From Escherichia coli (lineage in GTDB: Bacteria; Pseudomonadota; Gammaproteobacteria; Enterobacterales; Enterobacteriaceae): DNA of 64,000 nucleotides. The stretch is taken from NCBI RefSeq assembly GCF_003019035.1, contig NZ_CP027447.1; one strand, written 5' to 3'. The stretch's first letter is position 1; the number at the start of each line of letters is the position of its first letter. The notes below the pieces were generated by a model. That model saw only the letters and a program-made list of their open reading frames with translations, was not told the DNA's origin and did not search any database. The translations under genes and the position numbers were made by a program. Of this stretch, positions 1,833 through 26,699 are shown one piece after another.

Positions 1833-1962
1833 GTTGCATTCTCCTCTGTGAATAATTCATCGTTTATCCTGCACATCCCGTATCCCCGGCTCTCTTAACG
1901 CGCTTTAAAATCCTTCGCGCCCTGTATTTGTGATGCTGTCTCCACCAGACAAGGAGACACAC
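1833..1962. promoter_or_regulatory. divergent intergenic region; 7-bp inverted repeat TGTCTCC(1937-1943)/GGAGACA(1953-1959) whose 3' arm contains the SD of the first late gene
   Basis: Inverted repeat seen directly; position corresponds to the lys late promoter of Mu-like phages. Confidence 0.3.
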
Positions 1963-4315: not shown

Positions 4316-4317
4316 TT

Positions 4318-8477: not shown

Positions 8478-8479
8478 CA

Positions 8480-8938: not shown

Positions 8939-9152
8939 GTTTTCTCTCTTCAGGCGGGTGATTTATCATTGCCAGCGAATGAGGGGCTGTATTACCTTTA
9001 TAAAGGCTTTACAGCCTCTGTTTTATAACCGCTTCCGGTTCACCGCATTGCTTTCCCTGTCCTTCTCCCCTGATGTTTTCTAAAGCAGATTAAAATCGCC
9101 GGGCCTGCATTTCTCACAAACTGTCTCCGACAACATAACGCGGGACAGCAAA
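8939..9152 (+). promoter_or_regulatory. 214-bp intergenic region inside the head operon with an imperfect palindrome centred on TTTATAAA; candidate late promoter (position of Mu PI)
   Basis: Long gap in an otherwise tightly packed operon; palindrome seen at ~8985-9020. Confidence 0.3.
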
Positions 9153-10268: not shown

Positions 10269-10282
10269 TTTAAGGAGAAATC

Positions 10283-11236
10283 ATGTCTGATTACTTAAAA
10301 GGTAAACGTGTCGTTGATCCGGTACTGACCAGTATCGCCCGTGGCTATAAAAATGCCGCATTCATCGGCGAACGTATTTTCCCCGTCGTGCTGACGGACA
10401 AGGAAGGCGTGCGTGTACCGACCTTCGGGAAAACCGCCTTTGTGGAATATGACACCGAGCGCGCCGTCGGGGCGGACAGCAATGTTCTGGTCCGTGAGAA
10501 AACCGGCACGCTTGATCTGGTGCTGGGTGAACACGATCTGGCAGCGCCGGTGGATTACCGCGAACAGGCGGAGTCCATGTTTAACGAGGAGAGCAAGGCC
10601 ATCCGTCGCGCCACGAATGGCGTGAACCTGCGCCGTGAACTTATCGCTGCCCGTCTGGCTCAGGATGAAAAGGTCTACCGTACCGGACACGTCAAAAAAC
10701 TGACGTCCGGCGACCGCTGGGCCGGTGGTAAGGGTGACCCCATCGGGGTGATTGAAGCCGGTATGGAAGCGGTCCGTACGGCCACAGGGCTGCGTCCTAA
10801 CCTGATGACCATGGGTGCCGGCGTGATGGCGCTGCTGAAGTTCCATCCAGCACTTCAGGCAGCCATCGGAGCCAACGAGCGTAAGCGCATCACCACGGAG
10901 ATCCTGCAGGACCTCTTTCAGATCGAAGAGATCGTCATCGGTGCTCCTGTTTCCCTGCCATCCATGAAAGCGGCAATGGATAAAAACAGCGTGCCGGCGG
11001 ATATCTGGGGAGACAACCTGATGCTGCACTATGTCGGCAAACCGCAGCCCGGGGCGGACAGCGCGGACGAGAACGAGCCGTCCTTCGGCTACACTCTGCG
11101 TCGTAAGGGGATGCCTGTTGCTGACAAATACGACGGAGCCGGTGGCAAGGTGAAGTACTGCCGTTATACCGATATCTACAAAGTCGCCGTGGTTGGTGGC
11201 GATGCCGGGTATCTCATCACCGGTATCAGTAAATAA
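10283..11236 (+). CDS. major head subunit (Mu T-like), 317 aa
   Basis: Size, strong SD AAGGAG, position after protease/scaffold. Confidence 0.8.
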   Translation: MSDYLKGKRVVDPVLTSIARGYKNAAFIGERIFPVVLTDKEGVRVPTFGKTAFVEYDTERAVGADSNVLVREKTGTLDLVLGEHDLAAPVDYREQAESMFNEESKAIRRATNGVNLRRELIAARLAQDEKVYRTGHVKKLTSGDRWAGGKGDPIGVIEAGMEAVRTATGLRPNLMTMGAGVMALLKFHPALQAAIGANERKRITTEILQDLFQIEEIVIGAPVSLPSMKAAMDKNSVPADIWGDNLMLHYVGKPQPGADSADENEPSFGYTLRRKGMPVADKYDGAGGKVKYCRYTDIYKVAVVGGDAGYLITGISK

Positions 11237-11245
11237 GGAGGCGTT

Positions 11246-11584
11246 ATGGGAACCACTCAGCAGGTCATTCTGATTACAACCGTAACGGCAGGGGCAGAAC
11301 TGGCACAGCAGCGTTTTGTCGGGGCAGATAATACCCCCTGTAAAGCCGGTGCCGCAGCGCTCGGGGTTGCCGATGTGGATGCTGTTACCGGCGACAGCAC
11401 GCCGGTGAGCGTTCTGGGCATTATTGCTGTTGAGGCCGGTGCTGCGGTCAGCCGTGGTGTGGCTGTTCAGTCAGATGCTCAGGCCAGAGCCGTGCCGCAG
11501 TCCGGCGACGGTAAATCCTGTGGTATTGCACTTGATGAAGCCGGGGGTGAAGGCGACGTCATTCGTATCCTGCGCGGGGTGTGA
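11246..11584 (+). CDS. small Gly/Ala/Val-rich head-associated protein, 112 aa
   Basis: SD AGGAGG; position after major head gene. Confidence 0.4.
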   Translation: MGTTQQVILITTVTAGAELAQQRFVGADNTPCKAGAAALGVADVDAVTGDSTPVSVLGIIAVEAGAAVSRGVAVQSDAQARAVPQSGDGKSCGIALDEAGGEGDVIRILRGV

Positions 11585-11585
11585 C

Positions 11586-12032
11586 ATGTACTGCACCCTG
11601 GAGGATTTGCTTGCGCAGGTGCCGGAACGAACGCTGATCGAGCTCACCAGTGAAGAGATGGACTTCGACTCGCCTGCAACAGTGAATACCCGTGTGGTGG
11701 ACAGCTGTATCCGCTATGCCGACGAGCTGATTGATGCCCATCTGCGCGGACGCTATATCCTGCCACTGGCAGAGATACCGACTGTTCTGCGGGACATTGC
11801 CATCACGCTGGTCCGTTACCGGCTCTACGCCCGCCGCCCGGAAGGTGACCTCCCGGATACGGTGAAGGATGACCACAAAGAAGCGCTGCGGCAACTCAGG
11901 GAGTTACGTGATAACAGGCTCACGCTGGGGCTGCCGTCCACTCAGAAAGATGTGCCTGAGCCTGGCGAGTTTCGTGTACGCAGCCGCCTGGCCACTTTCG
12001 GCGGTCGTGACGGTTTACTGGAGAAATACTGA
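11586..12032 (+). CDS. head-tail joining protein candidate (Mu gp36-like)
   Basis: ATG 11586 directly after upstream stop; ORF-track ORF 11424..12032 trimmed. Confidence 0.45.
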   Translation: MYCTLEDLLAQVPERTLIELTSEEMDFDSPATVNTRVVDSCIRYADELIDAHLRGRYILPLAEIPTVLRDIAITLVRYRLYARRPEGDLPDTVKDDHKEALRQLRELRDNRLTLGLPSTQKDVPEPGEFRVRSRLATFGGRDGLLEKY

Positions 12033-12496
12033 TGAACGTTCTGCCCGTCCTTGATGCGGTACTGGCCCGGTTACGCGAGAAGCTGCCGCAACTGCAGGTG
12101 GAGTACTTCCCGGAGAAACCGGCTGAATATCGCCTGAACCATCCGGTTGGCGCGTTGCTGCTGAGCTATGCCGGTTCGCGCTTTGACAGGCCGGATGATA
12201 CCGGTGCGGTGATCCAGTCTCAGACTATCCAGCTCTACGTCACGGTGGTCTTCCGCCAGCTCAACGGTAAAAAAGGGGCGATTAATGTCCTGGATGCTGT
12301 CCGCCGCATTCTCGGCGGCCACACCCCGCCCGGCTGCCGCCGCCGTATCTGGCTGACCCGCGAGGTGTTCATCGGTGAAGTCAGGGGGCTGTGGCAATAC
12401 GCCCTCGACTTCGCGACTGAAAGCGTCTTTATCGAAGACAGCGATTTACCGTCCGGCCCGCTGTTAACCGAAGTGAACTATGAGGAAAGCGAGTGA
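12032..12496 (+). CDS. neck/tail completion protein candidate (Mu gp37-like)
   Basis: Order and size. Confidence 0.45.
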   Translation: MNVLPVLDAVLARLREKLPQLQVEYFPEKPAEYRLNHPVGALLLSYAGSRFDRPDDTGAVIQSQTIQLYVTVVFRQLNGKKGAINVLDAVRRILGGHTPPGCRRRIWLTREVFIGEVRGLWQYALDFATESVFIEDSDLPSGPLLTEVNYEESE

Positions 12497-12747
12497 TGAA
12501 AGAATACCGCTATTCCGGCCCGGCCAGCGGCGTCACGCTGTGGGACGGAACCGAAATCCTGCTCTGGCCGGGGAAGACGGTTTCCCTGCCGGAGGAGCAT
12601 GACTACGTGAAGGTACTGGTGGCGCTGAAGCATCTGACGCCGGTACCAGAAGATACTAAACCCGCCGTCACACCGGCAGTGCAGTCACCAAAGCGCAGAA
12701 GCAGCAGTGACAGCGAAGTGAAAACGGAGGACTCCCATGGCAGCTAA
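12496..12747 (+). CDS. small phage protein (Mu gp38-like position), 83 aa
   Basis: ATG 12496 overlapping upstream stop. Confidence 0.4.
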   Translation: MKEYRYSGPASGVTLWDGTEILLWPGKTVSLPEEHDYVKVLVALKHLTPVPEDTKPAVTPAVQSPKRRSSSDSEVKTEDSHGS

Positions 12748-14164
12748 CTATCTGCATGGCGTCGAAACCATTGAGGTGGAAAACGGAGCCCGCCCGGTTA
12801 AAACGGTGAAATCTGCCGTTATTGGCCTGATTGGTACCGCCCCGATGGGGGATGTCAATACGCTGGTACAGTGCCTGTCTGAGAAAGACGCTGCGGCATT
12901 TGGCAGCCAGTTCACCGGCTTTACCATTCCGCAGGCGCTGGATGCGATTTATGACCATGGTGCAGGCACCGTTCTGGTCATTAACGTACTCGATCCGTCT
13001 GTGCATAAAACCGCTGTGGTCAGTGAGAATGTGTCGTTCGACAAGGCGACAGGCAGAGCCCGGCTGGCTAATCCGGTGGTCGCGCAGCTGGTACTGAAAC
13101 CGGACAGCGACGGTCAGCCTTATGTTGAAGGTCAGGACTACTCGCTTGATGCACAGACCGGGGTGATTACTAACCTGGGTAAAAGCATTGCTGCAGATGC
13201 AACGGTGAAGGCCAGCTATAACTATGCTGATCCGACCAAAGTCACCCCGGCTGATATCATCGGTACCGTTAACGCTGCAGGCAACCGTACCGGCATGAAG
13301 CTGCTTAACGACAGTTTTAACCTGTTTGGCTACTTCGCCAAAATCCTGATTGCTCCGGTATTCTGCACCCAGAATAGCGTCTCGGTTGAGCTTATCGCCA
13401 TGGCTGAGAAACTGGGAGCAGTAACCTATATTGATGCGCCGGTTGGTACCACTTTTGCGCAGGCTCTGGCGGGACGTGGCCCGGAAGGCACCATTAACTT
13501 TAATACCAGCTCTGACCGTGTCCGCCTGTGCTACCCGCATGTGAAGGTATATGACCCGGTGACGAACACGGAGCGTCTGGAGCCACTGAGCCAGCGTGCG
13601 GCGGGCCTGCGTGCCAAAGTCGACCTGGACAAAGGGTACTGGTGGTCATCCTCCAATCAGGAAATTCTGGGGATCACCGGCGTGGAGCGCCAGCTGTCGG
13701 CAATGATTGACGATCCGCAGAGCGAGGTGAACCTGCTTAACGAACAGGGGATCACCACGGTATTCAGCAGTTACGGCAGCGGCCTTCGTCTGTGGGGTAA
13801 CCGGACGGCAGCATGGCCAACGGTCACCCATATGCGTAACTTTGAGAACGTTCGCCGCACCGGTGATGTGATCAACGAGTCCATTCGTTACTTCAGCCAG
13901 CAGTACATCGACATGCCGATTACTCAGGCGCTGATTGATGCACTGACGGAGTCGGTCAACGCCTACGGTCGCAAAATGACTGGTGATGGTGCGGTACTGG
14001 GCTTCCGTTGCTGGTTTGATCCGGCCCGCAATCCGGAGACGGAGCTGGCCGCCGGGCACCTGTTGCTGAGCTACAAATATACGCCACCACCGCCGCTGGA
14101 GCGACTGACGTTTGAGACTGAAATCACCTCGGAATACCTGTTAACCCTGAAAGGGGGCAACTGA
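12737..14164 (+). CDS. contractile tail sheath protein (Mu L-like), 475 aa
   Basis: Size, order, sheath-like sequence. Confidence 0.8.
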   Translation: MAANYLHGVETIEVENGARPVKTVKSAVIGLIGTAPMGDVNTLVQCLSEKDAAAFGSQFTGFTIPQALDAIYDHGAGTVLVINVLDPSVHKTAVVSENVSFDKATGRARLANPVVAQLVLKPDSDGQPYVEGQDYSLDAQTGVITNLGKSIAADATVKASYNYADPTKVTPADIIGTVNAAGNRTGMKLLNDSFNLFGYFAKILIAPVFCTQNSVSVELIAMAEKLGAVTYIDAPVGTTFAQALAGRGPEGTINFNTSSDRVRLCYPHVKVYDPVTNTERLEPLSQRAAGLRAKVDLDKGYWWSSSNQEILGITGVERQLSAMIDDPQSEVNLLNEQGITTVFSSYGSGLRLWGNRTAAWPTVTHMRNFENVRRTGDVINESIRYFSQQYIDMPITQALIDALTESVNAYGRKMTGDGAVLGFRCWFDPARNPETELAAGHLLLSYKYTPPPPLERLTFETEITSEYLLTLKGGN

Positions 14165-14685
14165 TGTCAAAGATTGAGATAAACCGAATCACGAATGCCA
14201 ACATCTATCTGGATGGTACTAACCTGCTGGGACGGGCTGAGGAAGTTAAACTCCCCGATGTCTCCATGATTATGCAGGAGCACAAGGCACTGGGGATGGT
14301 GGGTAAGGTGGAACTCCCGGCTGGTTTTGACAAACTGGAAGGCGAAATCAAATGGAACAGCTTTTACCGCGATGCGATGTTGTCTGCCGCGAACCCGTAC
14401 AGGTCGCTGGCGCTGCAGTGTCGCTCCAGCGTCCAGCGCTACAGCTCGCAGGGGCTGATCGACGAAATCCCGCTGGTCACCTTCCTGACAATTATGTTCA
14501 AGAAGAACCCGCTGGGGACGTTCAAACAGCACGAGAACGCCGAGTTCTCCAGTAGCTTCACCTGCACGTATATCAGACAGGTACTGGATGGTGAAGAGTT
14601 GCTGCAACTGGACTATCTGGCCAACATCTTCCGCGTCGGTGGCGTTGATCAACTGACTGACTATCGAATCAATATCGGGGGCTGA
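14164..14685 (+). CDS. tail tube protein (Mu M-like), 173 aa
   Basis: Size and position after sheath. Confidence 0.75.
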   Translation: MSKIEINRITNANIYLDGTNLLGRAEEVKLPDVSMIMQEHKALGMVGKVELPAGFDKLEGEIKWNSFYRDAMLSAANPYRSLALQCRSSVQRYSSQGLIDEIPLVTFLTIMFKKNPLGTFKQHENAEFSSSFTCTYIRQVLDGEELLQLDYLANIFRVGGVDQLTDYRINIGG

Positions 14686-14687
14686 CG

Positions 14688-14969
14688 GTGAGTGTTGAAC
14701 TGACTGACAAAGGAGGGCGATGTGCGTCACTGGGCATGTCAAATGGTACGTGGTTTACCCTCCTTGATATTCCGGGGGTGGAGACCCTCTTTAATACCCG
14801 TAAAACCAATGACCCGATTGACTGCACACGTTCAAAGGCCCGCAAACTGGCCGATTTGATTGAAGCATGGGAGCCGCCCGACCAGTGGTTCTCCGGCACC
14901 GGCAACTCTGAGGGAAAGGCGCTTCTCATCGCTTTCCTGCGTAACTGCAAGGGTTTTCGCACTTGCTGA
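14688..14969 (+). CDS. hypothetical protein, 93 aa, GTG start, followed by a terminator
   Basis: ORF immediately after tube stop; strong terminator directly downstream. Confidence 0.35.
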   Translation: MSVELTDKGGRCASLGMSNGTWFTLLDIPGVETLFNTRKTNDPIDCTRSKARKLADLIEAWEPPDQWFSGTGNSEGKALLIAFLRNCKGFRTC

Positions 14970-14976
14970 CATCACA

Positions 14977-14998
14977 GGGGCTCCGGCCCCTTCTTTTT
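14977..14998 (+). terminator. rho-independent terminator GGGGC-TCCG-GCCCC followed by TTCTTTTT
   Basis: GC stem plus T-tract read directly. Confidence 0.6.
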
Positions 14999-15066
14999 AA
15001 TCCCCTTTAATATCCGTCACGTCCACCGCCAGACATACTGCTCTGAATTTACAAAGGAGTATGATC

Positions 15067-15402
15067 ATGTCACAGACCCAGTCCGATACTTTTACGCTGT
15101 CTTATCCTTTCACCACTGCTGCAGGTACCAGAATTGAACAGATTGAACTGAAACGCCTGACAGTAAAAGACCTGAAGCAGGTGCGCAAAATCAACAAAGA
15201 CCCGACAGACTGGGACGAACCACTGATTGCCCGTAGCACCGGTATCCTCCCGGAAGACCTCGATAACATGGATCTTGCCGACTATATGGAGCTGCAGAAA
15301 CGATTTCAGAAAATCACTGGGCTGGGCAAGAGCGACAAAAACACTGATGCAGGCGCAGGGCCTGCTGGCGAGATGGTTCAGGTTTCAACCGGGGGAGATT
15401 GA
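15067..15402 (+). CDS. tail assembly chaperone (Mu gp41 position); SD AAGGAGT
   Basis: Position immediately upstream of tape measure. Confidence 0.55.
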   Translation: MSQTQSDTFTLSYPFTTAAGTRIEQIELKRLTVKDLKQVRKINKDPTDWDEPLIARSTGILPEDLDNMDLADYMELQKRFQKITGLGKSDKNTDAGAGPAGEMVQVSTGGD

Positions 15403-15484
15403 TGCCCTCGATACTGACGATCTGGAGATGTGGCTGGAGCAGGCTGAAGAGCAAATCAAAAGCGAGTTCGGCGACAATCAGTAA
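15227..15484 (+). CDS. overlapping +1/-2 frame ORF, probable frameshift extension of the tail assembly chaperone
   Basis: Open frame overlapping the 3' half of the chaperone gene with no SD of its own. Confidence 0.35.
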   Translation: MPVAPVSSRKTSITWILPTIWSCRNDFRKSLGWARATKTLMQAQGLLARWFRFQPGEIDALDTDDLEMWLEQAEEQIKSEFGDNQ

Positions 15485-15577
15485 CAACGTATCACTTAAC
15501 AGCCGCCAGTCGCGGCTGTTCTGCATGGGTTTCAGACACTTCCCTTCCGTTTTTTTTGCTTTCAGAGGATAGCCACC

Positions 15578-18043
15578 GTGGCCAGTGAATTTTCAGTCGG
15601 CGTCATTATTGGCGGCATTGTCGGGAGCAGCTTCCGCTCAGCCGTCAGTGGCACCCGACGCGCCCTTGATTCCCTTGGTGATACCTCCCGCCGTCTGCAG
15701 GAACGCCAGAATGCCTTAACCCGGGCAACAGAACGTTATGGTCAACTGGGTTCTTCCCGGATGCAGCATCTCAACAGCGAGTTGCTGCGGGTAAGCCGCA
15801 CCATGGAGCAAATTGAACGTCAGCAGCGCCGTCTGTCAGCAGTATCAGCCACCGGTGATGCGTTGAAGGCTAACCGCCTGGCGCTCTATGGTCAGGGTGC
15901 AGAAACCTATGCTATTGGCAGAACGCTGGGCGCACCGGTCATGGCCTCGGTTAAACAATATGCCTCGTTTGAATCACAGTTGCGGGATATCAGTGTCACA
16001 GGAGACCTGGATGCAAAACAGGAACGTGCAATTGGCCAGGCTATCAGACAGGCCTCGCTGAAGGTTAACCAACTGCAGGAGTCTCTGTTAGGGGGAGTCG
16101 GACAATTAGTTGCTGATGGTATGGCCCCCGAACGGGCAGCAACGTTTGCAGAGATGCTTGGAAAGACCGCTACAGCAACCAAAGCCGATATGACCGACCT
16201 TGCCAAAATGACTTATGCCTTCAGCGATGCACTCAGAATCACTGATGCGAAAGAACTTGAACAGGCGTTTGGTATTGCGGCAACAGGAGCCAAACTTGGG
16301 TCATTTGAGCTGAAGGATATGGCAAAAGCATTACCCGGTATGGCTAAAGCCTTCGCTGCTCGTGGTATTTATGGAAAAGATGCGATTACCCAGATTGTTG
16401 CCAGTCTGGAGGTCGGTAAAGGTAGTGGCTCTGCAGAGGAAGCGGTCACCAATATGTCCAACTGGCTGGCAGCAATGGGCCGCGGAGATACCATCCAGAA
16501 ATATGCTAAAGCCGGGGTGGATTACCAGGGGTCAATGCAGAATTACGTCGCTCAGGGTTTTTCGCAGTACGAAGCTTCACTGATGATTGCCAACCGTTTT
16601 ATCGACAGTAAAGGCAAAGCGTTCTTGCAGCAATGGAAAGCTGCAGGAGCAAGAGGCGATCAGGAAGGTCAGCAGAAACTCATGGAGTCATTTGGTCTGG
16701 CTGAGGTCTTTACCGATATTCAGACTGTCAACCATTTACTGTCAATGCGACAGGGCTGGGATAAATACCTTTCCAGTAAGCAGGAAATGAATGCTCCGGC
16801 TGCAATGTCTACCCTGGATAAGGATGCTGCAAAGCAGAATGATACGCTTGAAGGTCGCTGGCGCAGAATGCAGATCGGCTTTAATGATTCTGCTATCAGC
16901 ATCGGGCAATCCTTGCGTCCGGCTTTGCTCCAGTTGGGTGAAACATTTATTCCTTTAATGGACAGCGTCGGCAAATGGATAGCGGCAAATCCGCAGCTCG
17001 TCAGCAGCACCATAAAGGTTGTGGGCGCATTACTCGCTTTCAGGATGGCCACTATCGGTCTCAAGTTTGGGCTGAATCTCCTTATTTCCCCCTTTGTAAG
17101 CGTCTGGAAAAATGCTGTTTTACTTCGGGCCAACTGGCTTCGTCTGATGCTCGCACTGGGGGAAGGCGGTAAACTCCGCTGGCTGGTGACAGGCTTTGGT
17201 GCCGTCGCCAGAGGAGCCAGAACACTGGGGGGTGTGCTCTCAGGGGGGCTGGTTCGCGGAATTATGAGCGCCGGGCGTGCCGTTCTCTGGATTGGCCGGG
17301 CGCTGATGATGAATCCCATCGGTCTCGCTATCACCGCCGTCGCGGCAGCAGCTTACCTTATCTACCGCAACTGGGGCGCGGTCAGTAGCTGGTTTAAACA
17401 GCGCTGGGCTGACATTCAGGAAGCCTTTAACGGCGGTATCGCGGGAATTGGTAAACTGCTGGTTAACTGGTCTCCGGCAGGTCTGCTTTATAAAGCCTTT
17501 GCGGCTGCGCTGAAATATCTCGGCGTTGATTTGCCGGCGAAATTCACCGACTTCGGTGGTCATCTTATTGACGGGCTGATAAATGGCATCAGAAACAAAT
17601 GGGAGTCACTGAAAACCAGCATAACCGGAATGGGTGACAGCATCAGTGACTGGTTCAGCGAAAAGCTGGGCATCCATTCACCGAGTCGCGTGTTTATAGG
17701 CTTTGGTGACAATATCGCGCAGGGTGCCGCCATTGGCCTGCAACGGACCACTCCGCTTGCTGCACTGGCCGGGCAGCGCCTGGCCGCTGAAATGACACCG
17801 GATGTTCCCCGTATCCCGTCGCCGGAAATCATGGCTGCCGGATATTCAGGCCGTGGCGCAACGGCAACCGGCGGTGGAGCGTCTGGCGGTATCCAGGTCA
17901 GCTTTAATCCTCAGTTTTTCCTCAATGGTAAGGAAACCGCAGCGCCTGCCGGGCTGACTGGTGCCCTGAATATGAGCCTGCATGAGCTGGAAAAAATGCT
18001 GGAGCGTCTGCTGGCTCAGAAACAACGTAAGGAGTACAGCTGA
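15578..18043 (+). CDS. tail tape measure protein, 821 aa (GTG start)
   Basis: Length, Ala/Gly-rich repetitive sequence, position. Confidence 0.8.
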   Translation: MASEFSVGVIIGGIVGSSFRSAVSGTRRALDSLGDTSRRLQERQNALTRATERYGQLGSSRMQHLNSELLRVSRTMEQIERQQRRLSAVSATGDALKANRLALYGQGAETYAIGRTLGAPVMASVKQYASFESQLRDISVTGDLDAKQERAIGQAIRQASLKVNQLQESLLGGVGQLVADGMAPERAATFAEMLGKTATATKADMTDLAKMTYAFSDALRITDAKELEQAFGIAATGAKLGSFELKDMAKALPGMAKAFAARGIYGKDAITQIVASLEVGKGSGSAEEAVTNMSNWLAAMGRGDTIQKYAKAGVDYQGSMQNYVAQGFSQYEASLMIANRFIDSKGKAFLQQWKAAGARGDQEGQQKLMESFGLAEVFTDIQTVNHLLSMRQGWDKYLSSKQEMNAPAAMSTLDKDAAKQNDTLEGRWRRMQIGFNDSAISIGQSLRPALLQLGETFIPLMDSVGKWIAANPQLVSSTIKVVGALLAFRMATIGLKFGLNLLISPFVSVWKNAVLLRANWLRLMLALGEGGKLRWLVTGFGAVARGARTLGGVLSGGLVRGIMSAGRAVLWIGRALMMNPIGLAITAVAAAAYLIYRNWGAVSSWFKQRWADIQEAFNGGIAGIGKLLVNWSPAGLLYKAFAAALKYLGVDLPAKFTDFGGHLIDGLINGIRNKWESLKTSITGMGDSISDWFSEKLGIHSPSRVFIGFGDNIAQGAAIGLQRTTPLAALAGQRLAAEMTPDVPRIPSPEIMAAGYSGRGATATGGGASGGIQVSFNPQFFLNGKETAAPAGLTGALNMSLHELEKMLERLLAQKQRKEYS

Positions 18044-18927
18044 TGTTTGCCGTACTGGGTGATATTGAGTTTGAACTGATTACCTACTGGGACGGCTTCG
18101 AGGCCACGTTTGGCGTCGATTATGCGGAGCATGCCCGCATCGAGGGTAAACCCGGCCTGCAGTTCGTCGGCGACAGGCTGGACGAAATCCAGATAAGCCT
18201 GGTCTTCCATCAGCATTATTGTGTGCCCGACGTGGAGCTGGCGAGAGTGCGAACAGCCATGAAGGCCCATCAGGCACTGGCGCTGGTCTTCGGCAACGGT
18301 GACTATCGCGGCTGGTTCGTGATTACCGATGTGACCGCAACCAGCGAGCAGACAGACAGCACCGGTAACGTGCTGGCTGTCAGTGCCACCGTGTCTCTCC
18401 GGGAATACACCGGTGACCCGAAAAATCCTCTGCAACCGCCGGCAATACGCAGGCAGGTTCCCGGTGCCGGGGCCGTATCTGGTGCTGTTCCATCGCCTTC
18501 CGGGGTGGCGCAGTTCGTCCGTAACGGCGTCAACTATGCGAAACAGGCGCAGTCTGTACTCCAGACCACCATCAGTGCCGTTCGGGTGGCACAGAAAATG
18601 AAGGGTAACCCTGTTGTCGCGCTGACCCGTGTACCGGGACTGATGAGCGGACTGGGTAATATATCCGTGGCTCTGGGGAAAAGTGTTCCGGCGTTTAATG
18701 CACTCTCTGAATCCATGCCCGATGCCATCAGTCTGGCCAGAACAGCCAGTGAGGCAGCCACGTATGTACAGCAGGCGCAGTCGGCGCTGAGTGGTGTGGA
18801 CAAAAGAAATATTGCAGGTGCTCTGGATACCGTTTCCGGGCAGCTTAACGCCGCCGGCACAGCATTCAACCGCATGTCTCCGGGATTAAGTGCAATGGCC
18901 GCCAGAATACTGACGAGGAGTGTGTGA
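18043..18927 (+). CDS. tail protein (Mu N / DNA-circulation-like)
   Basis: Order after tape measure; family resemblance from memory. Confidence 0.5.
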   Translation: MFAVLGDIEFELITYWDGFEATFGVDYAEHARIEGKPGLQFVGDRLDEIQISLVFHQHYCVPDVELARVRTAMKAHQALALVFGNGDYRGWFVITDVTATSEQTDSTGNVLAVSATVSLREYTGDPKNPLQPPAIRRQVPGAGAVSGAVPSPSGVAQFVRNGVNYAKQAQSVLQTTISAVRVAQKMKGNPVVALTRVPGLMSGLGNISVALGKSVPAFNALSESMPDAISLARTASEAATYVQQAQSALSGVDKRNIAGALDTVSGQLNAAGTAFNRMSPGLSAMAARILTRSV

Positions 18928-19139
18928 TGTTTCTTGAACATATTACCCGTGACGGAGAGCGCTGGGATTCGCTGGCATGGCAGTACTACGGTGACCCGCT
19001 GGGCTATCCCCGGATTATTGCAGCCAATCCGCACGTGGCCATTACGCCGGTGCTGCCCTCCGGGTTGTTGTTACTGATCCCGGTTATTGAGGCTGAAGAT
19101 GCCCGTACAGAAGAGGATATTGCCCCATGGCTGAGATAA
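18927..19139 (+). CDS. tail protein X-like (LysM-like small tail protein)
   Basis: Small protein between N-like and D-like genes resembling P2 gpX. Confidence 0.45.
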   Translation: MFLEHITRDGERWDSLAWQYYGDPLGYPRIIAANPHVAITPVLPSGLLLLIPVIEAEDARTEEDIAPWLR

Positions 19140-20281
19140 ACAGTACTGCGCAAGCCACATCAGCGTTAACCGGCGTCAGCGATGTGCTGACGCCGGTATT
19201 CACTCTGTGGTATCTGCAGAAAAACATCACCTCTGATATCGCGCCTTATGTCACCCGTGTGGTCTGGAGCGATAACATCAAAAATGAGTCCGATACCATT
19301 GAGGTGGAGCTGGACGACACCGATGGCCGCTGGCTGGATAAGTGGTATCCGGGCAAGGGTGACACGCTGACGCTGAAAATGGGTTATCAGGGCGAGAAAC
19401 TGCTGTCCTGCGGTACATTCTCAATAGACGAGATCGAAGTGAGTTCGCCCGCGTCCGTTGTCGCTATCCGTGGGGTGGCCACCTCGGTTAACAGTGCTCT
19501 GCGGACTAAATCCAGCCGTGGTTTTGAGAACACCACGCTGGCAGCTGTTGCGGGGCGGATTGCCAGAAAGCACCGGCTGAAACTGGTGGGCAGCATTGAG
19601 TCCATCAGAATCGACCGGGTGACCCAGTATGCTGAAACCGACGTGGGTTTTCTGCGCCGGCTGGCCAGCGAGTATGGTTATGCAGTGAAAGTGGTCAGTG
19701 ACCAGTTGATTTTTTCTCATCTGGCCACACTGCGCAGTCAGGAGCCGGTCAGGCAGTTAAAACCGCAGGATGTGGCCTGCTTTTCCCTGCGTGACACCAT
19801 CAACCGGGTCTATAAATCTGCAAAGGTAAAACACCAGAAAAGCAGCAGTAAAAAACTGATCGTCTACGAAGCTGATGGTGGTACCCGTGAAAGCGACAAA
19901 AAGCTCAAAGGCGGTAAGGTTACCAGCGCTGACTCACTTAAAGTTAACAGCCGCGTCAGCGACCCGGACAGTGCCCGGATTAAAGCGGATTCAGCACTGG
20001 CCAGACATAACGAATACCAGCAGAACGGCTCCCTGACGCTGACGGGAACGCCTCAACTGACAGCAGGCAACAAAATTGAACTGGTGGGCTTTGGACAGTT
20101 ATCCGGTCCATGGCTGATAATCACTGCCCGCCATGCGTTTGAGCGTAACAGCGGCTACACCACAGAGCTGGAAGTGGCACGGGGGCCAGTCACAAGAGGG
20201 AAAAAACAAAAAACTCAGAAACTCACGGTTTATCACCCGGATGGCAGTACATCGACGGTGATTAAGGAGAAGAAAAAATGA
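19127..20281 (+). CDS. tail/baseplate hub protein (P2 gpD-like / Mu P-like), 384 aa
   Basis: Order and family resemblance. Confidence 0.65.
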   Translation: MAEINSTAQATSALTGVSDVLTPVFTLWYLQKNITSDIAPYVTRVVWSDNIKNESDTIEVELDDTDGRWLDKWYPGKGDTLTLKMGYQGEKLLSCGTFSIDEIEVSSPASVVAIRGVATSVNSALRTKSSRGFENTTLAAVAGRIARKHRLKLVGSIESIRIDRVTQYAETDVGFLRRLASEYGYAVKVVSDQLIFSHLATLRSQEPVRQLKPQDVACFSLRDTINRVYKSAKVKHQKSSSKKLIVYEADGGTRESDKKLKGGKVTSADSLKVNSRVSDPDSARIKADSALARHNEYQQNGSLTLTGTPQLTAGNKIELVGFGQLSGPWLIITARHAFERNSGYTTELEVARGPVTRGKKQKTQKLTVYHPDGSTSTVIKEKKK

Positions 20282-20805
20282 CTGGTGTCACCCGTCAGAT
20301 CGGTACGGTCAGTGCCGTTGATGCCGACAGGGTTCAGGCCCGCGTTCGTCTGCCTGAATGCGATAATCTGCGCACAAACTGGCTTAACGTGCTACAGCGC
20401 AATACCCAGGATAACAAGGATTACTGGCTCCCTGACGTGGGGGAGCAGGTTGAGGTGCTGCTCGATGCCAACGGCGAGGATGGTGTTATTCTGGGCGCGG
20501 TGTACTCAGACGTCGATAAACCGCCGTTCAGTGATAAAAACGTCCGGGGTACGAAATACGCTGATGGCGCGGAGTTCAGTTATAACCGCGCGACCCATAC
20601 GCTGACGGTCAGAGGAGGTATTGAGCGTATCGTGGTGGAGGTTGCCGCTGATATCTCTCTCAAAGGGAAAAAACTCGACCTCACGGGAGTTACCACGATC
20701 AACGGCCCCGCGACACTCAATGGTGATCTGGAAATCAACGGAAGCGCCCATGCAACGGGTAACATATTTGCTGATGGTCAGAACTCTAATCACCATTCCC
20801 ATTGA
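20278..20805 (+). CDS. baseplate assembly protein V (spike), 175 aa
   Basis: gpV-like sequence. Confidence 0.7.
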   Translation: MTGVTRQIGTVSAVDADRVQARVRLPECDNLRTNWLNVLQRNTQDNKDYWLPDVGEQVEVLLDANGEDGVILGAVYSDVDKPPFSDKNVRGTKYADGAEFSYNRATHTLTVRGGIERIVVEVAADISLKGKKLDLTGVTTINGPATLNGDLEINGSAHATGNIFADGQNSNHHSH

Positions 20806-20861
20806 ACCTTCTTAAACGCCTTTAATATCGGCGCTTACTTCCCGGGGGCAATACTGCCTCC

Positions 20862-21209
20862 ATGAAAACGACCTCAGTATTCTGGCAACCAGCTCTGCAG
20901 GCTCCCGGCGAAATCGTCCGGGGGCTGGATGATATCCGGCAGTCCATCCAGATCATCCTGCGGACTCCCCGCGGCAGCGACCCGCATCGCCCGGAGTTCG
21001 GCAGCAATCTGCACCTTTATATCGACTGGCCTGTCGACCGGGCCATTCCGCATGTGGTTCGCGAATCCGTCGATGCCATCAGGCGCTGGGAACCCCGCTG
21101 CCAGCTTATGTCGGTTAAACCCGCCGTCGACGGCGAACATCTTACGCTCCGGGTGAGCTGGAAAGGCTCAGACGGACAACCCCGTACTCAGGAACTGCTA
21201 TGGCGCTGA
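20862..21209 (+). CDS. baseplate wedge protein gpW/gp25-like, 115 aa
   Basis: GPW_gp25-like sequence. Confidence 0.7.
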   Translation: MKTTSVFWQPALQAPGEIVRGLDDIRQSIQIILRTPRGSDPHRPEFGSNLHLYIDWPVDRAIPHVVRESVDAIRRWEPRCQLMSVKPAVDGEHLTLRVSWKGSDGQPRTQELLWR

Positions 21210-22303
21210 CAGAACCCGATTTTATTGAACGCGATGCCGATAAAATCACGGCAGAAATGATTGCGAAGTATGAAGAGGATACCGGAAAAACGCTGTACCC
21301 GGCACAGGCTGAACGTCTGCTGATTGACCTGTGGGCCTATCGCGAAATGCTGGTCAGGGTGGCAGTACAGGAGGCGGCGAAGCAGAATCTGGTCGCTTTT
21401 TCCCGTGAGCCGATGATTGATTACCTCGGTGAACTGGTCGGTGTATACCGCCTTGCCGCGCAGCCTGCCACCACCACACTTCAGTTCTCTGTGGATGAGG
21501 CACTGGCCATTGATGTGCTGATCCCGGCAGGCACCCGCGTCAGCGCTTCCGACAGTATTATTTTTGCCACCGATACAGACGTGGTGCTGAAGGCCGGATT
21601 GCTGCTGGTCAATGTCACGGCCACCTGTACCGAGCCGGGTACCGCTGGCAACGGCTGGCAACCGGCGCAGGTCAGTCAGTTACTCGATGAGATTGATAAC
21701 ATTGACCTGCTGGTGACCAATCTGACGGCCAGCTCTGGCGGTTCAGAGCAGGAAGACGATGACCGGCTCCGGGAGCGTATCAGGCTGGCCCCGGAGTCAT
21801 TCACCAATGCCGGAAGCCGTGGTGCATACCGTTTTCATGCTATGGGGGCGCATCCCGGCATTGTCGACGTTGCTGTTCTTTCTCCCGCTCCCGGCACTGT
21901 CGAGCTGTATCCGCTGCTCAGCACTGGTCTGCCGGACAGCAGTATCCTCACTCTGGTAGAGAGTTTCTGTTCTGACGAAAAAGTCAGACCACTCACTGAT
22001 ACCGTGCGGGCTAAAACACCTGTTCAGGTGGATTACACCATTGAAGCCAGGATTACGATCTATCGTGATCAGGATGCAAGGTTGGTAAAGGACAACGCTA
22101 ACAGCGCCATACAGAACTGGGTGGCATCCCGTACCGCCACGCTGGGGCGCGATATTGTTCCCAGCCAGATTATCAGCGTGTTGTCCGTTTCCGGGGTGTA
22201 CCAGGTCGAACTGGTGACACCGGCACTGAGGGTGGTGGCAGAAAACGAATGGGCAAACTGTACGGCGATCACTCTTAACATGACCGGGGTGTCCGATGGC
22301 TAA
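21200..22303 (+). CDS. baseplate protein J-like, 367 aa
   Basis: Baseplate_J-like sequence and order. Confidence 0.8.
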   Translation: MALTEPDFIERDADKITAEMIAKYEEDTGKTLYPAQAERLLIDLWAYREMLVRVAVQEAAKQNLVAFSREPMIDYLGELVGVYRLAAQPATTTLQFSVDEALAIDVLIPAGTRVSASDSIIFATDTDVVLKAGLLLVNVTATCTEPGTAGNGWQPAQVSQLLDEIDNIDLLVTNLTASSGGSEQEDDDRLRERIRLAPESFTNAGSRGAYRFHAMGAHPGIVDVAVLSPAPGTVELYPLLSTGLPDSSILTLVESFCSDEKVRPLTDTVRAKTPVQVDYTIEARITIYRDQDARLVKDNANSAIQNWVASRTATLGRDIVPSQIISVLSVSGVYQVELVTPALRVVAENEWANCTAITLNMTGVSDG

Positions 22304-22874
22304 GGTGCTACAACTCCCGCCACCGCTTGAGGGTGATATCAGTCTCAGAACGCTGGGAAGACTGGCCGGACGGCTGGATAACATCGACCTGAGCGTACTG
22401 ATGGTCGGTCTCGTCGATATTGTCGACAGTTCCGCGCTGCCATGGCTTGGCGAGCAGTTCTCGCTGTTCGGCGATGGCTGGGAACTGGCGGAATCGGACG
22501 ATGTACGCCGCATGCTTATCAAATCCGCTATCGAGCTACACCGCTATAAAGGAACACCGTGGTCAATCCGGGAAATTATCCGCCGTTTTGGCTTCGGCGA
22601 AGTGGATCTGATTGAAGGTACGGGGCAGATTGGCTATGACGGCAGACACACGTACAACGGGCTTTTCGTCCATGGTGATGCACAAGCCTGGGCAGTCTAT
22701 CGCGTCATCTTTCAACAACCCATCACTAACGATCAGGCGGCGCTGTTACGTCAGACGCTTGCTGCCTTTGCTCCGGCTCGCTGTCATCTGGCAAGTCTGG
22801 AATATCAGTCTGTCGCCATTCGATACAACAGTACTACCTGTTATGACGGTAGTTACAACCACGGGAGCAGTTAA
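22296..22874 (+). CDS. tail protein I-like (P2 gpI / Mu gp48-like), 192 aa
   Basis: Family resemblance and order. Confidence 0.7.
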   Translation: MAKVLQLPPPLEGDISLRTLGRLAGRLDNIDLSVLMVGLVDIVDSSALPWLGEQFSLFGDGWELAESDDVRRMLIKSAIELHRYKGTPWSIREIIRRFGFGEVDLIEGTGQIGYDGRHTYNGLFVHGDAQAWAVYRVIFQQPITNDQAALLRQTLAAFAPARCHLASLEYQSVAIRYNSTTCYDGSYNHGSS

Positions 22875-22876
22875 TT

Positions 22877-23845
22877 ATGGCAAATCTACCCGAAACCCCG
22901 CAGTGGGAAAGCGGCATCTACCAGATTGAGGTCTCTGACCCCGTTCTGGGCGGACCTGACGGAATTTCTAACCGCCAGGCTAAACAACTGGCCAGCCGAA
23001 CGTCATACCTCAAACAGAAGGTCGAAAAAAGCGGAACAGACCTGGCTGCACATATCGCGGCAGTTGACCCGCATACCCAGTACGCGACGAAAGCCAGTCC
23101 GACATTCACCGGCACACCAACAGCACCTACACCTGCAAATGGTGATAACAGCAAAAAGCTGGCGACGACGGAGTTTGTGGCCAAAGCACTTGCGGCACTT
23201 GCAGGCAGCGCCCCTGAGACACTGGATACGCTTAAAGAGCTGGCTGACGCTCTCGGTAATGATCCAAACTTTGCGACTACGGTACTGAACAAGCTGGCGG
23301 AAAAGCTGGCTAAAGACCAGAACGGCGCAGATATTCCTGAGCCTGCGCTGTTTGTCAAAAACCTTGGTTTGGGGGAAGGCTCTGCACTGCCCGTTGGTGT
23401 GCCCGTTCCGTGGCCCTTAGCAACACCACCAACGGGCTGGCTGAAATGTAACGGTGCAGCATTTTCTTCTGAAATGTACCCCAAACTGGCAAAAGCCTAC
23501 CCCGCGAATAAATTACCGGATTTACGCGGAGAATTTATCCGTGGCTGGGATGATGGGCGAGGAATTGATGCGGCACGCGCTTTATTGAGCATTCAAAACG
23601 GGATGTTGGAAAAACACCGCCATATTGTTGTAGCTAACGATGGATATGACACAAAAGATGAATGGGAGTTGGCTACGATTTTCAAAAAAACATATACACA
23701 AGGCAGGGGGCTTGATGCCACAAATACAGGAGGGAGTTTGACTCCATCACCAACGCTTCATTCACGAGGAAGTATTGGTAACACAGGTGGTAGTGAAACC
23801 CGCCCCCGCAATATTGCATTTAACTATATCGTGAGGGCGGCTTAG
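22877..23845 (+). CDS. tail fibre protein: constant N-terminal part fused to the variable C-terminal part currently in the + orientation
   Basis: Tail-fibre-like N-terminus; C-terminal ~155 aa lie inside the invertible segment. Confidence 0.75.
   Translation: MANLPETPQWESGIYQIEVSDPVLGGPDGISNRQAKQLASRTSYLKQKVEKSGTDLAAHIAAVDPHTQYATKASPTFTGTPTAPTPANGDNSKKLATTEFVAKALAALAGSAPETLDTLKELADALGNDPNFATTVLNKLAEKLAKDQNGADIPEPALFVKNLGLGEGSALPVGVPVPWPLATPPTGWLKCNGAAFSSEMYPKLAKAYPANKLPDLRGEFIRGWDDGRGIDAARALLSIQNGMLEKHRHIVVANDGYDTKDEWELATIFKKTYTQGRGLDATNTGGSLTPSPTLHSRGSIGNTGGSETRPRNIAFNYIVRAA
23361..23386 (+). other. gix/hix-like recombination site, left (TTGTCAAAAACCTTGGTTTGGGGGAA)
   Basis: Matches the AAACC-NN-GGTTT core of Gin/Hin sites; sits at the outer edge of the long inverted repeat. 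Confidence 0.55.
23371..23569 (+). repeat. inverted repeat, left copy (~200 bp, high identity to reverse complement of 24772..24978)
   Basis: Direct comparison of the two stretches; both encode GEGSALPVGVPVPWP...GRGID. Confidence 0.8.
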
Positions 23846-23851
23846 TTATAT

Positions 23852-24469
23852 TCAACTGGCTGCTGCCAGAGGCATTTCCGGCCAGTTGATATCCGGTGCA
23901 GTGCTGATGTCAGTCGCATTAAGCACATCTATGAAATCAAGCACGGCGTTTAGTTTTTCCGTCTCCTGGGGCGTCAATCGGCGTCCGGCTCGTAGTTTGA
24001 GATTTATAAGCTCAACAGATGCCATTGCCTGTTCCTCAAGTTGCTGACGATGCACTCCGGCAGCTTCCAGTTCTGCTGCGTGCTGTCGTCCCGCATCTGT
24101 CACCCAGGTCTCACCATCCCAGACATCATAGATAGTAGCTGGCTGTTTCACCGTCGTATCAGGAGGGTAATCTCCCGGTTGTGTGATTTGCACAGCGTTA
24201 CCATTCTCTGTGCTGTAAACCGTTTCGCCTCTGTGGTCTGGAACATATTTCCAGATGTTCTGGTCGGTATCACGACAGACAGCGAAGCCGGGGCGTTTTT
24301 CTGGTGGCGCGTCAATGCATGAGTGAGCCGGAATTCCAACACCATAAGCGAGATACTCAACAGTGGCAGAGAGATATTCACGGTTTTCAGCATCGTAGTT
24401 ATAAACGGTAATATCGCCTGCAGTTATAGCGATACCATTCTGATCAAGTACTGCAGCAGCATTATTCAT
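23852..24469 (-). CDS. tail fibre assembly protein (Tfa/U-like), 205 aa
   Basis: Tfa-like sequence; start overlaps stop of the inverted alternative fibre segment. Confidence 0.7.
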   Translation of the reverse strand: MNNAAAVLDQNGIAITAGDITVYNYDAENREYLSATVEYLAYGVGIPAHSCIDAPPEKRPGFAVCRDTDQNIWKYVPDHRGETVYSTENGNAVQITQPGDYPPDTTVKQPATIYDVWDGETWVTDAGRQHAAELEAAGVHRQQLEEQAMASVELINLKLRAGRRLTPQETEKLNAVLDFIDVLNATDISTAPDINWPEMPLAAAS

Positions 24470-24972
24470 TAAGTAGCCCTTACAATATAGTTAAACGCAA
24501 TATTACGGGGGCGGTTTTCCGTTCCTGTATTCCCTCCGTTGGCACCTAATCTATAAACACCACGAGTGCCAATAGCACGTAGTGAAGATGGAACTTTTAC
24601 ACCTGACTCATCTGTTTTAACAATCCCGCCATCACCGTATGTAGCCAGTATACCAGGGTTTGTTCCTGCACGGGTGCTATTTGCGGCAAGCCCTTCACCA
24701 GTCCATAACTCCATATAGTGAATATGATCTATAACCGAATGTGATTGTGCATTAAGCAAGGAACGCCCTGAATCAATTCCCCGCCCGTCATCCCAGCCGC
24801 GAATAAACTCACCCCGTAAATCCGGTAATTTATTCGCGGGGTAGGCTTTTGCCAGTTTGGGGTACATTTCAGAAGAAAATGCTGCACCGTTACATTTCAG
24901 CCACCCTGCTGGCGGTGTGGCTGAGGGCCACGGAACGGGCACACCAACGGGCAGTGCAGAGCCTTCCCCCAA
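24469..24972 (-). CDS. alternative tail fibre C-terminal segment (silent in this orientation; no own start expected)
   Basis: First 65 aa near-identical to internal part of the + strand fibre; different C-terminal ~100 aa ending in the same RPRNIAFNYIVRA motif. Confidence 0.65.
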   Translation of the reverse strand: MGEGSALPVGVPVPWPSATPPAGWLKCNGAAFSSEMYPKLAKAYPANKLPDLRGEFIRGWDDGRGIDSGRSLLNAQSHSVIDHIHYMELWTGEGLAANSTRAGTNPGILATYGDGGIVKTDESGVKVPSSLRAIGTRGVYRLGANGGNTGTENRPRNIAFNYIVRAT

Positions 24973-24978
24973 ACCAAC
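24772..24978 (-). repeat. inverted repeat, right copy
   Basis: Reverse complement matches 23371..23569. Confidence 0.8.
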
Positions 24979-24988
24979 GTTTTCGTCT
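24963..24988 (-). other. gix/hix-like recombination site, right (reads GACGAAAACGTTGGTTTGGGGGAA on the - strand)
   Basis: Same AAAC-NN-GGTTT core in inverted orientation. Confidence 0.5.
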
Positions 24989-25043
24989 TAACTCCCACCT
25001 ATACCAGCTATGTATTTTTAACAAAACAAAGAGGATATTTTTC

Positions 25044-25616
25044 ATGCAAATTGGCTACATTCGTGTGTCAACAAATGACCAGAATACAGATTTACAACGA
25101 AACGCACTGAACTGCGCAGGATGTGAACTGATTTTTGAGGATAAAATCAGCGGAACAAAGTCAGCCCGACCGGGATTGAAAAAGCTGCTCAGAACGTTAT
25201 CAGAAGGAGATACGCTCGTTGTCTGGAAGCTGGACAGGCTGGGCAGAAGCATGAAACACCTCATCACTCTTATTGAGGAACTGCGGGAAAAAGGGGTTAA
25301 CTTCCGTAGTCTTACAGACAGCATTGATACGTCAACACCCATGGGACGTTTCTTTTTTCACGTCATGGGGGCTTTAGCGGAAATGGAGCGTGAATTAATA
25401 GTTGAACGAACACTGGCCGGACTTGAAGCAGCACGTGCACAGGGGCGTATTGGTGGACGTCGTCCGAAACTGACAAAAGAGCAACATGAACAAATAGCAA
25501 GGCTGATCAAAAATGGCTATAGCAGGAAACAGTTGGCAATTATTTACGATATCGGTATATCGACGATTTATCGTTATCACCCTGTAGAGGAACTTCAAAC
25601 TCAAGCTGAGTTGTAA
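25044..25616 (+). CDS. Gin/Pin/Hin-family serine DNA invertase, 190 aa
   Basis: N-terminal MQIGYIRVSTNDQ catalytic-serine motif and near-identity of long blocks to Gin/Pin as I remember them; SD AAGAGGA. Confidence 0.85.
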   Translation: MQIGYIRVSTNDQNTDLQRNALNCAGCELIFEDKISGTKSARPGLKKLLRTLSEGDTLVVWKLDRLGRSMKHLITLIEELREKGVNFRSLTDSIDTSTPMGRFFFHVMGALAEMERELIVERTLAGLEAARAQGRIGGRRPKLTKEQHEQIARLIKNGYSRKQLAIIYDIGISTIYRYHPVEELQTQAEL

Positions 25617-25691
25617 TTCTTTTTCTGATATTGAAATGCCGCGGCGATGTAATTTATCTCACGGAAATAGGTACGTTTATCGCGCGGCGCA

Positions 25692-26204
25692 TCAATTCCT
25701 TTGTAAATCCAGCAAATCATCAATGCCAGTTTCACTTGCGGTATAAAAACTATCGGACTGAAAAACACACGGGCGACCTTGCTGATTAAAGGTCATCAGA
25801 ATCAAAAACGCGTTAGGTGCCAGACCATTTCCTGAAATACCCCGCCAGATAACCAGATCCTGAATGCCGTTACGATCAAGATCGGCACGGTAAAGTTGCG
25901 CATTACCCGCCATATTTTGCAGCACCCCCACAGGCACAGACCAGGATTTACCGGCGCGATCTTTACCGTTCAATTGCCATTCACTATCATCATTTGGCAT
26001 CTTTTCAAGCGTCACGCCAGCAACGCCGACTTTTCTAAAATGCCAGGTTTGCTCGGCATCATAAGGCATGGTCAGGAGAGGTTTCAGCGCCCGCTTTTGC
26101 GCGTATTCGCTGTCACTCATCGGCAGATATTCGGTAAAGCTGGTGGCCTGTGCAGGCAGCACTAAGCTCAATAAAAAAGCGCACATCCCTGTTCTGATGT
26201 TCAA
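25692..26204 (-). CDS. secreted hypothetical protein, 170 aa (signal peptide ...LSLVLPAQA), between invertase and hycI
   Basis: Signal-peptide-like N-terminus; TTG at 26204 or ATG at 26186 as start. No family recognised. Confidence 0.5.
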   Translation of the reverse strand: MNIRTGMCAFLLSLVLPAQATSFTEYLPMSDSEYAQKRALKPLLTMPYDAEQTWHFRKVGVAGVTLEKMPNDDSEWQLNGKDRAGKSWSVPVGVLQNMAGNAQLYRADLDRNGIQDLVIWRGISGNGLAPNAFLILMTFNQQGRPCVFQSDSFYTASETGIDDLLDLQRN

Positions 26205-26228
26205 TTCCCTGAATTCCTTACTGAAAAA

Positions 26229-26699
26229 CTACTCTTCTTCCACCGCTAACTGCGCGAAGCCGCCGTTCCCTTCCCAGCCTTCCAGACGTTGATAAACGGT
26301 TTCCACCGCATCTTTAATCGGCTGGGTCATCGGGTAGTAAAAGCCGACGATATCCGGCTGGATGCCGAGGAAAATCACTTCGCCAATGTCTTCTTTCAAC
26401 TGGTCGATAAGGTAGTTCAGCGGCATGTTATGGGTAGTCATCATAAACATCTCGGCGATGTCATCCGGGTCGATGATGCGGATCTCGCCGGGGTTTAGCC
26501 CCATATCCGTGGCGTCGACAATCAGCAGTCGTGTCGGGCGCAGTTCACGGATGGCGACGATATCGTTTTCCGGTGCGCTACCGCCGTCAATCACCACCCA
26601 GTTACCTTTCGGCGCGGCGGCGCACTTTTCCGCCAGCAGCGGGCCTGCGCCATCATCGCCCATCATGCTATTGCCAACACAGAGTAAAACGTCAGTCAC
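26229..26699 (-). CDS. hycI: hydrogenase 3 maturation protease
   Basis: Recognised E. coli protein sequence; operon context. Confidence 0.9.
   Translation of the reverse strand: MTDVLLCVGNSMMGDDGAGPLLAEKCAAAPKGNWVVIDGGSAPENDIVAIRELRPTRLLIVDATDMGLNPGEIRIIDPDDIAEMFMMTTHNMPLNYLIDQLKEDIGEVIFLGIQPDIVGFYYPMTQPIKDAVETVYQRLEGWEGNGGFAQLAVEEE

Follow-up and report, generated by a model that had tools for sequence, protein, structure and literature searches.

Phage Mu is transposable, has 5'-TG...CA-3' termini and inserts almost at random, knocking out host genes. A Gin-type invertase near its right end controls an invertible tail-fibre segment, this end is arranged in the order gin, com, mom, attR, and the target duplication made on insertion is 5 bp long. 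A second type of transposable phage, the BcepMu type, includes Escherichia phage PhiKM (PQ738613.1, assigned to Bcepmuvirus by NCBI) and the prophages of strains WS3294A, TW10573, CFS3292 and 97.3. These relatives combine a Mu-type head with a P2-type tail, carry their early genes (Mor, Gam, ExeA-type ATPase and DDE transposase) on the opposite strand, and are found at unrelated chromosomal sites with 6-bp duplications.

The DNA analysed here, a 64,000-nt stretch of Escherichia coli sequence referred to as the window, begins inside a transposable prophage of this second type and passes into chromosomal hyc genes (Table 1). The in-window part of the prophage contains lysis genes, Mu-type head genes, a P2-type contractile tail, an invertible tail-fibre segment and a serine invertase; Pfam matches were obtained for Portal_Mu (E=2.8e-90), Phage_Mu_F, Terminase_6N/6C (a T4-type large terminase), Phage_sheath_1, GPD and Baseplate_J. 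The closest phage record is PhiKM, and nucleotide identity to PhiKM and the four named prophages amounts to 94-98% over most of the in-window prophage. Among complete E. coli genomes, 51 carry prophages about 97% identical, at sites that vary from one chromosome to another.

Table 1. Features of the right prophage end and of the adjoining chromosome (positions in the window).
Feature	Coordinates	Strand	Evidence
Right-hand ~25.7 kb of BcepMu-like (Bcepmuvirus-type) transposable prophage	1..25694	+	Pfam matches, 94% identity to PhiKM
Serine DNA invertase (Gin/Pin/Hin type), 190 aa, last prophage gene	25044..25616	+	Resolvase E=1.7e-51, HTH_7 E=1.3e-13
Non-coding right end of prophage	25617..25694	.	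78 bp, ending ...TTTATCGCGCGGCGCATCA-3'
Truncated host gene	25692..26204	-	TTG start, 170 aa; codons 1-170 = 25695-26204
ATTCCT, first host bases and predicted right-hand copy of the target duplication	25695..25700	.	SCU-301 identity starts at 25695
Spacer, hycI stop to TTG start	26205..26228	.	24 bp, read from sequence
hycI, hydrogenase 3 maturation protease, intact	26229..26699	-	Pfam HycI E=1e-30; 100% identical to SCU-301

Full-length relatives carry, on the opposite strand, genes for Mor, gp16/GemA, Gam, an ExeA-type ATPase and a DDE transposase, together with a gene annotated "BcepMu_gp16 family"; the DDE transposase and its AAA+ partner occur in every one of them, in a region that corresponds here to DNA left of window position 1. 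Alignment with the relatives places the left end of the prophage about 10 kb left of position 1, so that the left ~10 kb, expected to hold Mor, Gam, an ExeA/B-like ATPase, the DDE transposase, the repressor and the left end itself, would lie outside the window. The prophage shares with Mu its transposable nature, its tips and its invertase with an invertible tail-fibre segment. It is BcepMu-like, however, and not Mu itself: the early region is arranged differently, the genus is Bcepmuvirus and not Muvirus, and the duplication measured in relatives is 6 bp as against 5 bp in Mu.

Inverted repeats of 212 nt (23358-23569 and 24772-24983), 93% complementary to each other, enclose the invertible tail-fibre segment, in which alternative fibre C-termini and assembly genes are found. 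A second inverted pair, of 50 nt, was seen at 23795-23844 and 24470-24519.

The right end differs from that of Mu in that only 78 non-coding bases separate the invertase stop (25616) from the end of the phage (25694). This distance leaves no place for com or mom, in agreement with an earlier reading made from the sequence alone, according to which no com/mom-like gene follows the invertase. The invertase is likewise the last annotated gene, about 78 bp from the end, in the prophages of four relatives (L004, L005, L006 and L010), in none of which was a Mom or Com gene annotated by PGAP. Since the phage is BcepMu-like, a com/mom module is not to be expected there, and the comparison with the com/mom region of Mu, which that sequence-only reading had drawn, is misplaced.

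The junction between prophage and host lies at 25694/25695, where the last bases of the prophage are ...GCGCGGCGCATCA. It falls inside the stretch of about 600 bp in or beside which the sequence-only reading had located it, and it was fixed by the alignment to a prophage-free genome that this reading had proposed. By local BLAST, E. coli SCU-301, which carries no prophage at this place, is collinear with window positions 25695-30700 at 100% identity; the window reads ...TTTATCGCGCGGCGCATCA/ATTCCTTTGTAAATCC at the junction and SCU-301 reads ...TGCGTGTGGCC ATTCCTTTGTAAATCC. The identical terminus ...CGCGCGGCGCATCA was found in strains 97.3, CFS3292 and WS3294A, followed in each by unrelated DNA, and the prophage of TW10573 (L010) ends at the same base, ...GCGCGGCGCATCA. 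The flanks of these other insertions are gsk, ppiD and proY or IS DNA. As independent insertions end at this base beside unrelated flanks, base 25694 is the right terminus of the element.

In the relatives the left terminus reads TGATTAGAC... or TGATTAGACTTGAGATAAATG...; both ends of the element start with TGAT, and its tips are 5'-TG...CA-3', as is typical of transposable phages. A 9-mer resembling GAGATAAAT occurs at positions 12-20 and 35-43 from the tip at both ends, which in the window corresponds, at the right end, to 25675-25683 and 25652-25660 (minus-strand reading). The arrangement suggests that these GAGATAAAT-like 9-mers are candidate transposase-binding sites.

A 20-nt inverted match (18/20) links 23560-23579 (AGGAATTGATGCGGCACGCG, tail-fibre coding) with 25681-25700 (CGCGCGGCGCATCA/ATTCCT); by a rough estimate, about 0.007 matches of this quality would be expected in the 2.9-kb region. 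It spans the junction, six of its bases being host target DNA, and was treated as a coincidence.

The length of the target duplication was measured in relatives because the open-access papers give no value for BcepMu. In WS3294A the prophage lies between aes and gsk with TTTTCC (6 bp) on both sides, and the empty site, rebuilt with a single TTTTCC, matched prophage-free genomes at all 494 bases (100%). In TW10573 the prophage lies between ybaV and ppiD with TTTGTT (6 bp) on both sides. This family of prophages makes 6-bp target duplications, and from the two cases ATTCCT (25695-25700) is predicted to be the right-hand copy in the present genome. This duplication, of which the right copy is the one visible, and a simple insertion are both predicted by analogy with the relatives; a rearrangement at the left end, such as the one seen on the right side of the 97.3 prophage (L004), is conceivable.

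What separates ascB from hycI in SCU-301 is one intact gene of 756 bp, without phage DNA. Its product, "hypothetical protein" WP_077902345.1, has 257 aa when read from a TTG codon and 251 aa when read from the internal ATG annotated by PGAP; the alignment favours the upstream TTG as the start, since the initiator methionine of the Klebsiella protein aligns with it. The minus-strand ORF at 25692..26204 of the window translates into residues 1-170 of the 257-aa SCU-301 ORF, all identical. Its TGA stop (25692-25694) is the reverse complement of the terminal TCA of the phage, and the codon of SCU-301 at this position is GGC (Gly). The break thus falls between Asn170 and Gly171, within the second of two DxDxNG-like loops (DLLDLQRN/GHTQLL), and 87 codons of the interrupted gene are lost. 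Neither these 3' codons nor ascB DNA were found by local BLAST in the 64,000-nt window. On this evidence the 170-aa ORF is almost certainly the front two-thirds of a chromosomal accessory gene cut by the prophage, and not phage cargo.

The sequence-only reading had correctly recognised a minus-strand gene for a 170-aa protein with a signal peptide, had set it 25 bp from hycI (the gap is 24 bp), and had placed it at the right end of the prophage; its coding bases are wholly outside the prophage. Of the two origins that this reading had left open, a moron or host DNA, the second is borne out by SCU-301 and by the distribution described below and the first is not, and truncation by the insertion had been missed.

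The ORF is, judging by its conservation, a real reading frame and not a chance one, because amino acid identity to the orthologues is 70% in Salmonella and 61% in Klebsiella. Its N-terminus, MNIRTGMCAFLLSLVLPAQA/TSF, has by eye the n/h/c layout and the AxA cleavage site of a Sec signal peptide, and the aligned homologues keep a hydrophobic leader with small residues at its end; a Sec signal peptide is therefore plausible. Scanning of the minus strand detected no terminator-like site in the region between hycI and the ORF and no promoter-like site in the 24-bp spacer, the sole minus-strand promoter match being inside the ORF. With no terminator and no spacer promoter, the truncated gene may be read through from the hyc operon, a possibility with which the scans are consistent without proving it.

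The truncated fragment is most likely a non-functional pseudogene remnant, judging from the structure model and from conservation. In the AlphaFold model of the intact protein six beta-strands of a single compact domain fall in the lost part, and the strands modelled at residues 168-208 (251-aa numbering) lie past the break; these six core strands and half of a conserved loop are missing from the fragment. In an alignment of 11 Enterobacterales sequences, Leminorella included, the lost residues comprise the invariant GYW, T, LY, W, RV, G, FG, YPAL and RF.

The fragment might instead still be made by read-through from the hyc operon, exported and functional, which would be compatible with disruption of the gene by the prophage. 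The signal peptide, the start codon and the upstream region are intact, the first FG-GAP-like loop is retained, no terminator-like site separates the ORF from hycI, and shorter ORFs (about 155-200 aa) are present at the same locus in other strains. We consider a working fragment quite unlikely, however: a conserved loop is split besides the loss of the six strands from a compact beta domain, such fragments usually misfold and are degraded, and the shorter alleles elsewhere look like decay products.

The exact abutment of the stop on the junction, with no foreign residue added to the protein, could mean that the small host gene is complete at 170 aa, with the prophage sitting just past its natural stop. 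This is very improbable, given that the TGA consists of phage bases where SCU-301 has the glycine codon, and that intact alleles continue for 87 strongly conserved codons.

A moron origin of the ORF, as cargo of the right prophage end in the place taken by com/mom in Mu, could be argued from its direct contact with the prophage and from its G+C content (48%, as against 55% in the neighbouring hyc genes), but the chance of this is close to negligible, as the coding bases begin at 25695, outside the terminus common to four insertions, the ORF is missing from the other copies of the prophage, 1462 genomes have the gene at the same locus without a prophage, and no PHROG family, phage record or viral fold matched it.

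The distribution of the truncated host gene was examined by megablast of window positions 25400-26700 against 5426 complete E. coli genomes. None of the 5426 spanned the junction of invertase and ORF, this insertion site being absent from them, and an exact search with the 36-nt right junction gave no match in public metagenome, genome or viral contig collections. In other genomes the match to the window starts at 25695, 25701 or 26023, or as late as 26208-26227; for K-12 and O157 it begins at 26208, and the gene is entirely lost in both. Searched for by itself, the gene was present in 2299 of the 5426 genomes, always in single copy and on the chromosome: it was full-length (>=80% complete) in 1462 and a remnant in 837 more. 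Its occurrence beside hycI in prophage-free genomes, which the sequence-only reading had named as evidence against cargo, refutes that origin.

In the 837 remnant genomes, ST131 among them, typically the first ~164 bp of the gene survive beside hycI. In E. coli FDAARGOS_144 (L002, 3552-4182) a helix-turn-helix gene comes after the remnant, and one related fused product has been named ygjM-like. In Enterobacteriaceae the gap between ascB and hycI is an islet of variable content, and at least three alleles of it exist: the intact gene, a remnant with a helix-turn-helix gene, or nothing.

Outside E. coli, the Salmonella orthologue (269 aa) directly follows hycI and precedes hydN, and the Klebsiella spallanzanii orthologue lies downstream of hycI with one small SymE-toxin gene in between. 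The Leminorella homologue (355 aa) is unlinked to hyc. Close homologues in E. coli, E. albertii, E. marmotae, Salmonella, K. spallanzanii and Leminorella are annotated as "hypothetical" or "periplasmic or exported protein", and a search of the literature with the Salmonella locus tag STM2844, which was a guess, returned nothing. At the K. spallanzanii locus (L008, 4422-6814) two SymE-toxin genes and a ParD/ParE pair flank the orthologue, which marks the spot downstream of hycI as a landing site for small mobile modules.

The host protein matched no PHROG family, its structure model matched no viral structure at E<=0.001, and tblastn against 50,697 phage records retrieved two short records only, neither of them regarded as a real phage carrying the gene. 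OR845509.1 (L020; 2.3 kb, "UNVERIFIED_ORG", labelled phage) aligns in full with the hycI-hydN segment of the Salmonella chromosome at 98% identity; it was rejected as a phage carrier and regarded as host DNA carried over in a phage preparation. OR850966.1, a 4-kb record of a phage collection with a partial match, is probably host DNA too.

The relevant steps of the insertion may be proposed as follows. A transposable BcepMu-like prophage inserted into the accessory gene just downstream of hycI, between hycI and ascB, a site not shared by the related prophages. Its right terminus lies at 25694 (...GCGCATCA), with host DNA resuming at 25695, and the promoter-proximal two-thirds of the gene remain as the 170-aa ORF closed by a TGA made of phage bases. 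The other 87 codons are expected beyond the left end of the prophage, about 10 kb left of the window. There the left junction should read ...CAATTGCGTGTGGCCATTCCT/TGATTAGACTTGAGATAAATG..., with the second copy of ATTCCT and then the 87 codons and ascB on the host side; stated from the phage side, ...GTGTGGCCATTCCT, the rest of the gene (its 3' portion) and ascB should come before the left end TGATTAGACTTGAG.... The hyc operon upstream is untouched.

For annotation, the boundary of the prophage can now be given to the exact base, and the appropriate label for the ORF is a disrupted host gene, not a phage lysogenic-conversion gene. Disruption of a host gene by a transposable prophage is an ordinary finding; all that is mildly novel is the family of uncharacterised proteins that includes the product of the disrupted gene. 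This family is sizeable, has no description in Pfam, NCBIfam or the literature, and is now provided with a confident structure model.

A profile search of 1.84 billion representative proteins identified 328 relatives at E<=1e-3, each a representative of a cluster at 50% identity, across Enterobacterales, Pseudomonas and Obscuribacterales. Most of them are 330-360 aa long and have an extra C-terminal region. The members that carry names come from Pseudomonas and Obscuribacterales, the Pseudomonas homologue being listed in UniRef as 'VCBS repeat-containing protein'. The HMM search that the sequence-only reading had suggested gave nothing for the E. coli protein: no Pfam model (E<=1) and no NCBIfam or PHROG model matched it.

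The intact E. coli protein carries two DxDxNGxxD-like loops, ADLDRNGIQDL and DLLDLQRNGHTQL, like those of FG-GAP/VCBS repeats (PF01839, PF13517; the blades of the integrin alpha propeller), and the wider family has the FG-GAP/VCBS-like loop DLLDLDxDGxAEL. The family profile weakly matched the Ca2+ loop of integrin alpha-V (E=0.026). When the FG-GAP_3 model was run on 10 distant homologues, only P0128 passed (27.2 vs 26.9 bits), the others being sub-threshold. Unlike FG-GAP/VCBS proteins, the E. coli protein has only two loops, forms no 7-bladed propeller and stays below the Pfam gathering score. The resemblance of the motifs appears real, and membership of the FG-GAP/VCBS family is not established by it.

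An AlphaFold model built from 80 sequences (mean pLDDT 92.5, pTM 0.89) replaced an earlier one built from 11 sequences (pLDDT 49). Taken with the alignments, it predicts an intact protein that is exported by Sec, is all-beta, has two FG-GAP/VCBS-like loops and belongs to a broad unnamed family. Scores for fold matches to the model were modest: 6.9 for PliI-Ah, a periplasmic lysozyme inhibitor (3od9), 6.9 for eIF3 subunit b, a WD40 propeller (6ybt), 6.8 for UmbA4 (9oee), 6.4 for the PVL lectin, also a propeller (2bwm), and 6.1 for X-Tfi XAC2610 (4qtq; 140 residues aligned).

XAC2610, Tsi1 and PliI-Ah form a single fold class of peptidoglycan-hydrolase inhibitors, and XAC2610 has a Ca2+-binding loop (PMC10933484). 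The host protein weakly resembles these three periplasmic inhibitors (3od9, 4qtq and, for Tsi1, 4fqb) with their small beta-propeller-like fold, and XAC2610 was the only non-integrin PDB sequence found by the family profile, at a non-significant E=1.8. The likeness, seen in a predicted structure, is a weak lead and not membership of the class. Like PliI, Tsi1 and X-Tfi, the members of the widespread exported two-loop family might inhibit lysozyme-like or peptidoglycan-hydrolase toxins in the periplasm, each as a stand-alone (orphan) inhibitor, with the Escherichia/Salmonella gene perhaps a tenth gene of the hyc operon; we regard this as unlikely. If it were true, the insertion would remove a piece of the envelope defence of the strain. 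No effector gene was seen beside family members in the contexts examined, where the neighbours were hycI/ascB, hycI/hydN, toxin-antitoxin modules, a PTS operon, an amylase and response regulators.

The neighbourhoods of distant homologues consisted of short contigs or unrelated neighbours. At several of these loci (L017, 5152-5940; L018, 3584-4003) the family member is immediately preceded by a small same-strand gene without a Pfam match, which may be a conserved partner. In two of these loci a YCII-domain gene and an alpha-amylase gene are located 3' of the family member.

Some differences were also noted among the prophages. Window positions 1-259 (and 763-1080) show no match to the Dam-methylase region of PhiKM and CFS3292, the closest relatives, and bases 1-109 are only ~80% similar to a different central-region gene, present in WS3294A and TW10573. 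This indicates, as far as the alignments go, that the region between the early and the late genes is mosaic in the BcepMu-like phage family. Other strains carry related prophages in decay: that of 97.3 (L004, 36461-37707) has a frameshifted invertase and IS4321/Tn3 DNA directly at its right end, and in that of TW10573 (L010, 32443-38660) a baseplate-region gene with a PD-(D/E)XK nuclease annotation contains insertions of IS100, ISEc43 and IS2.
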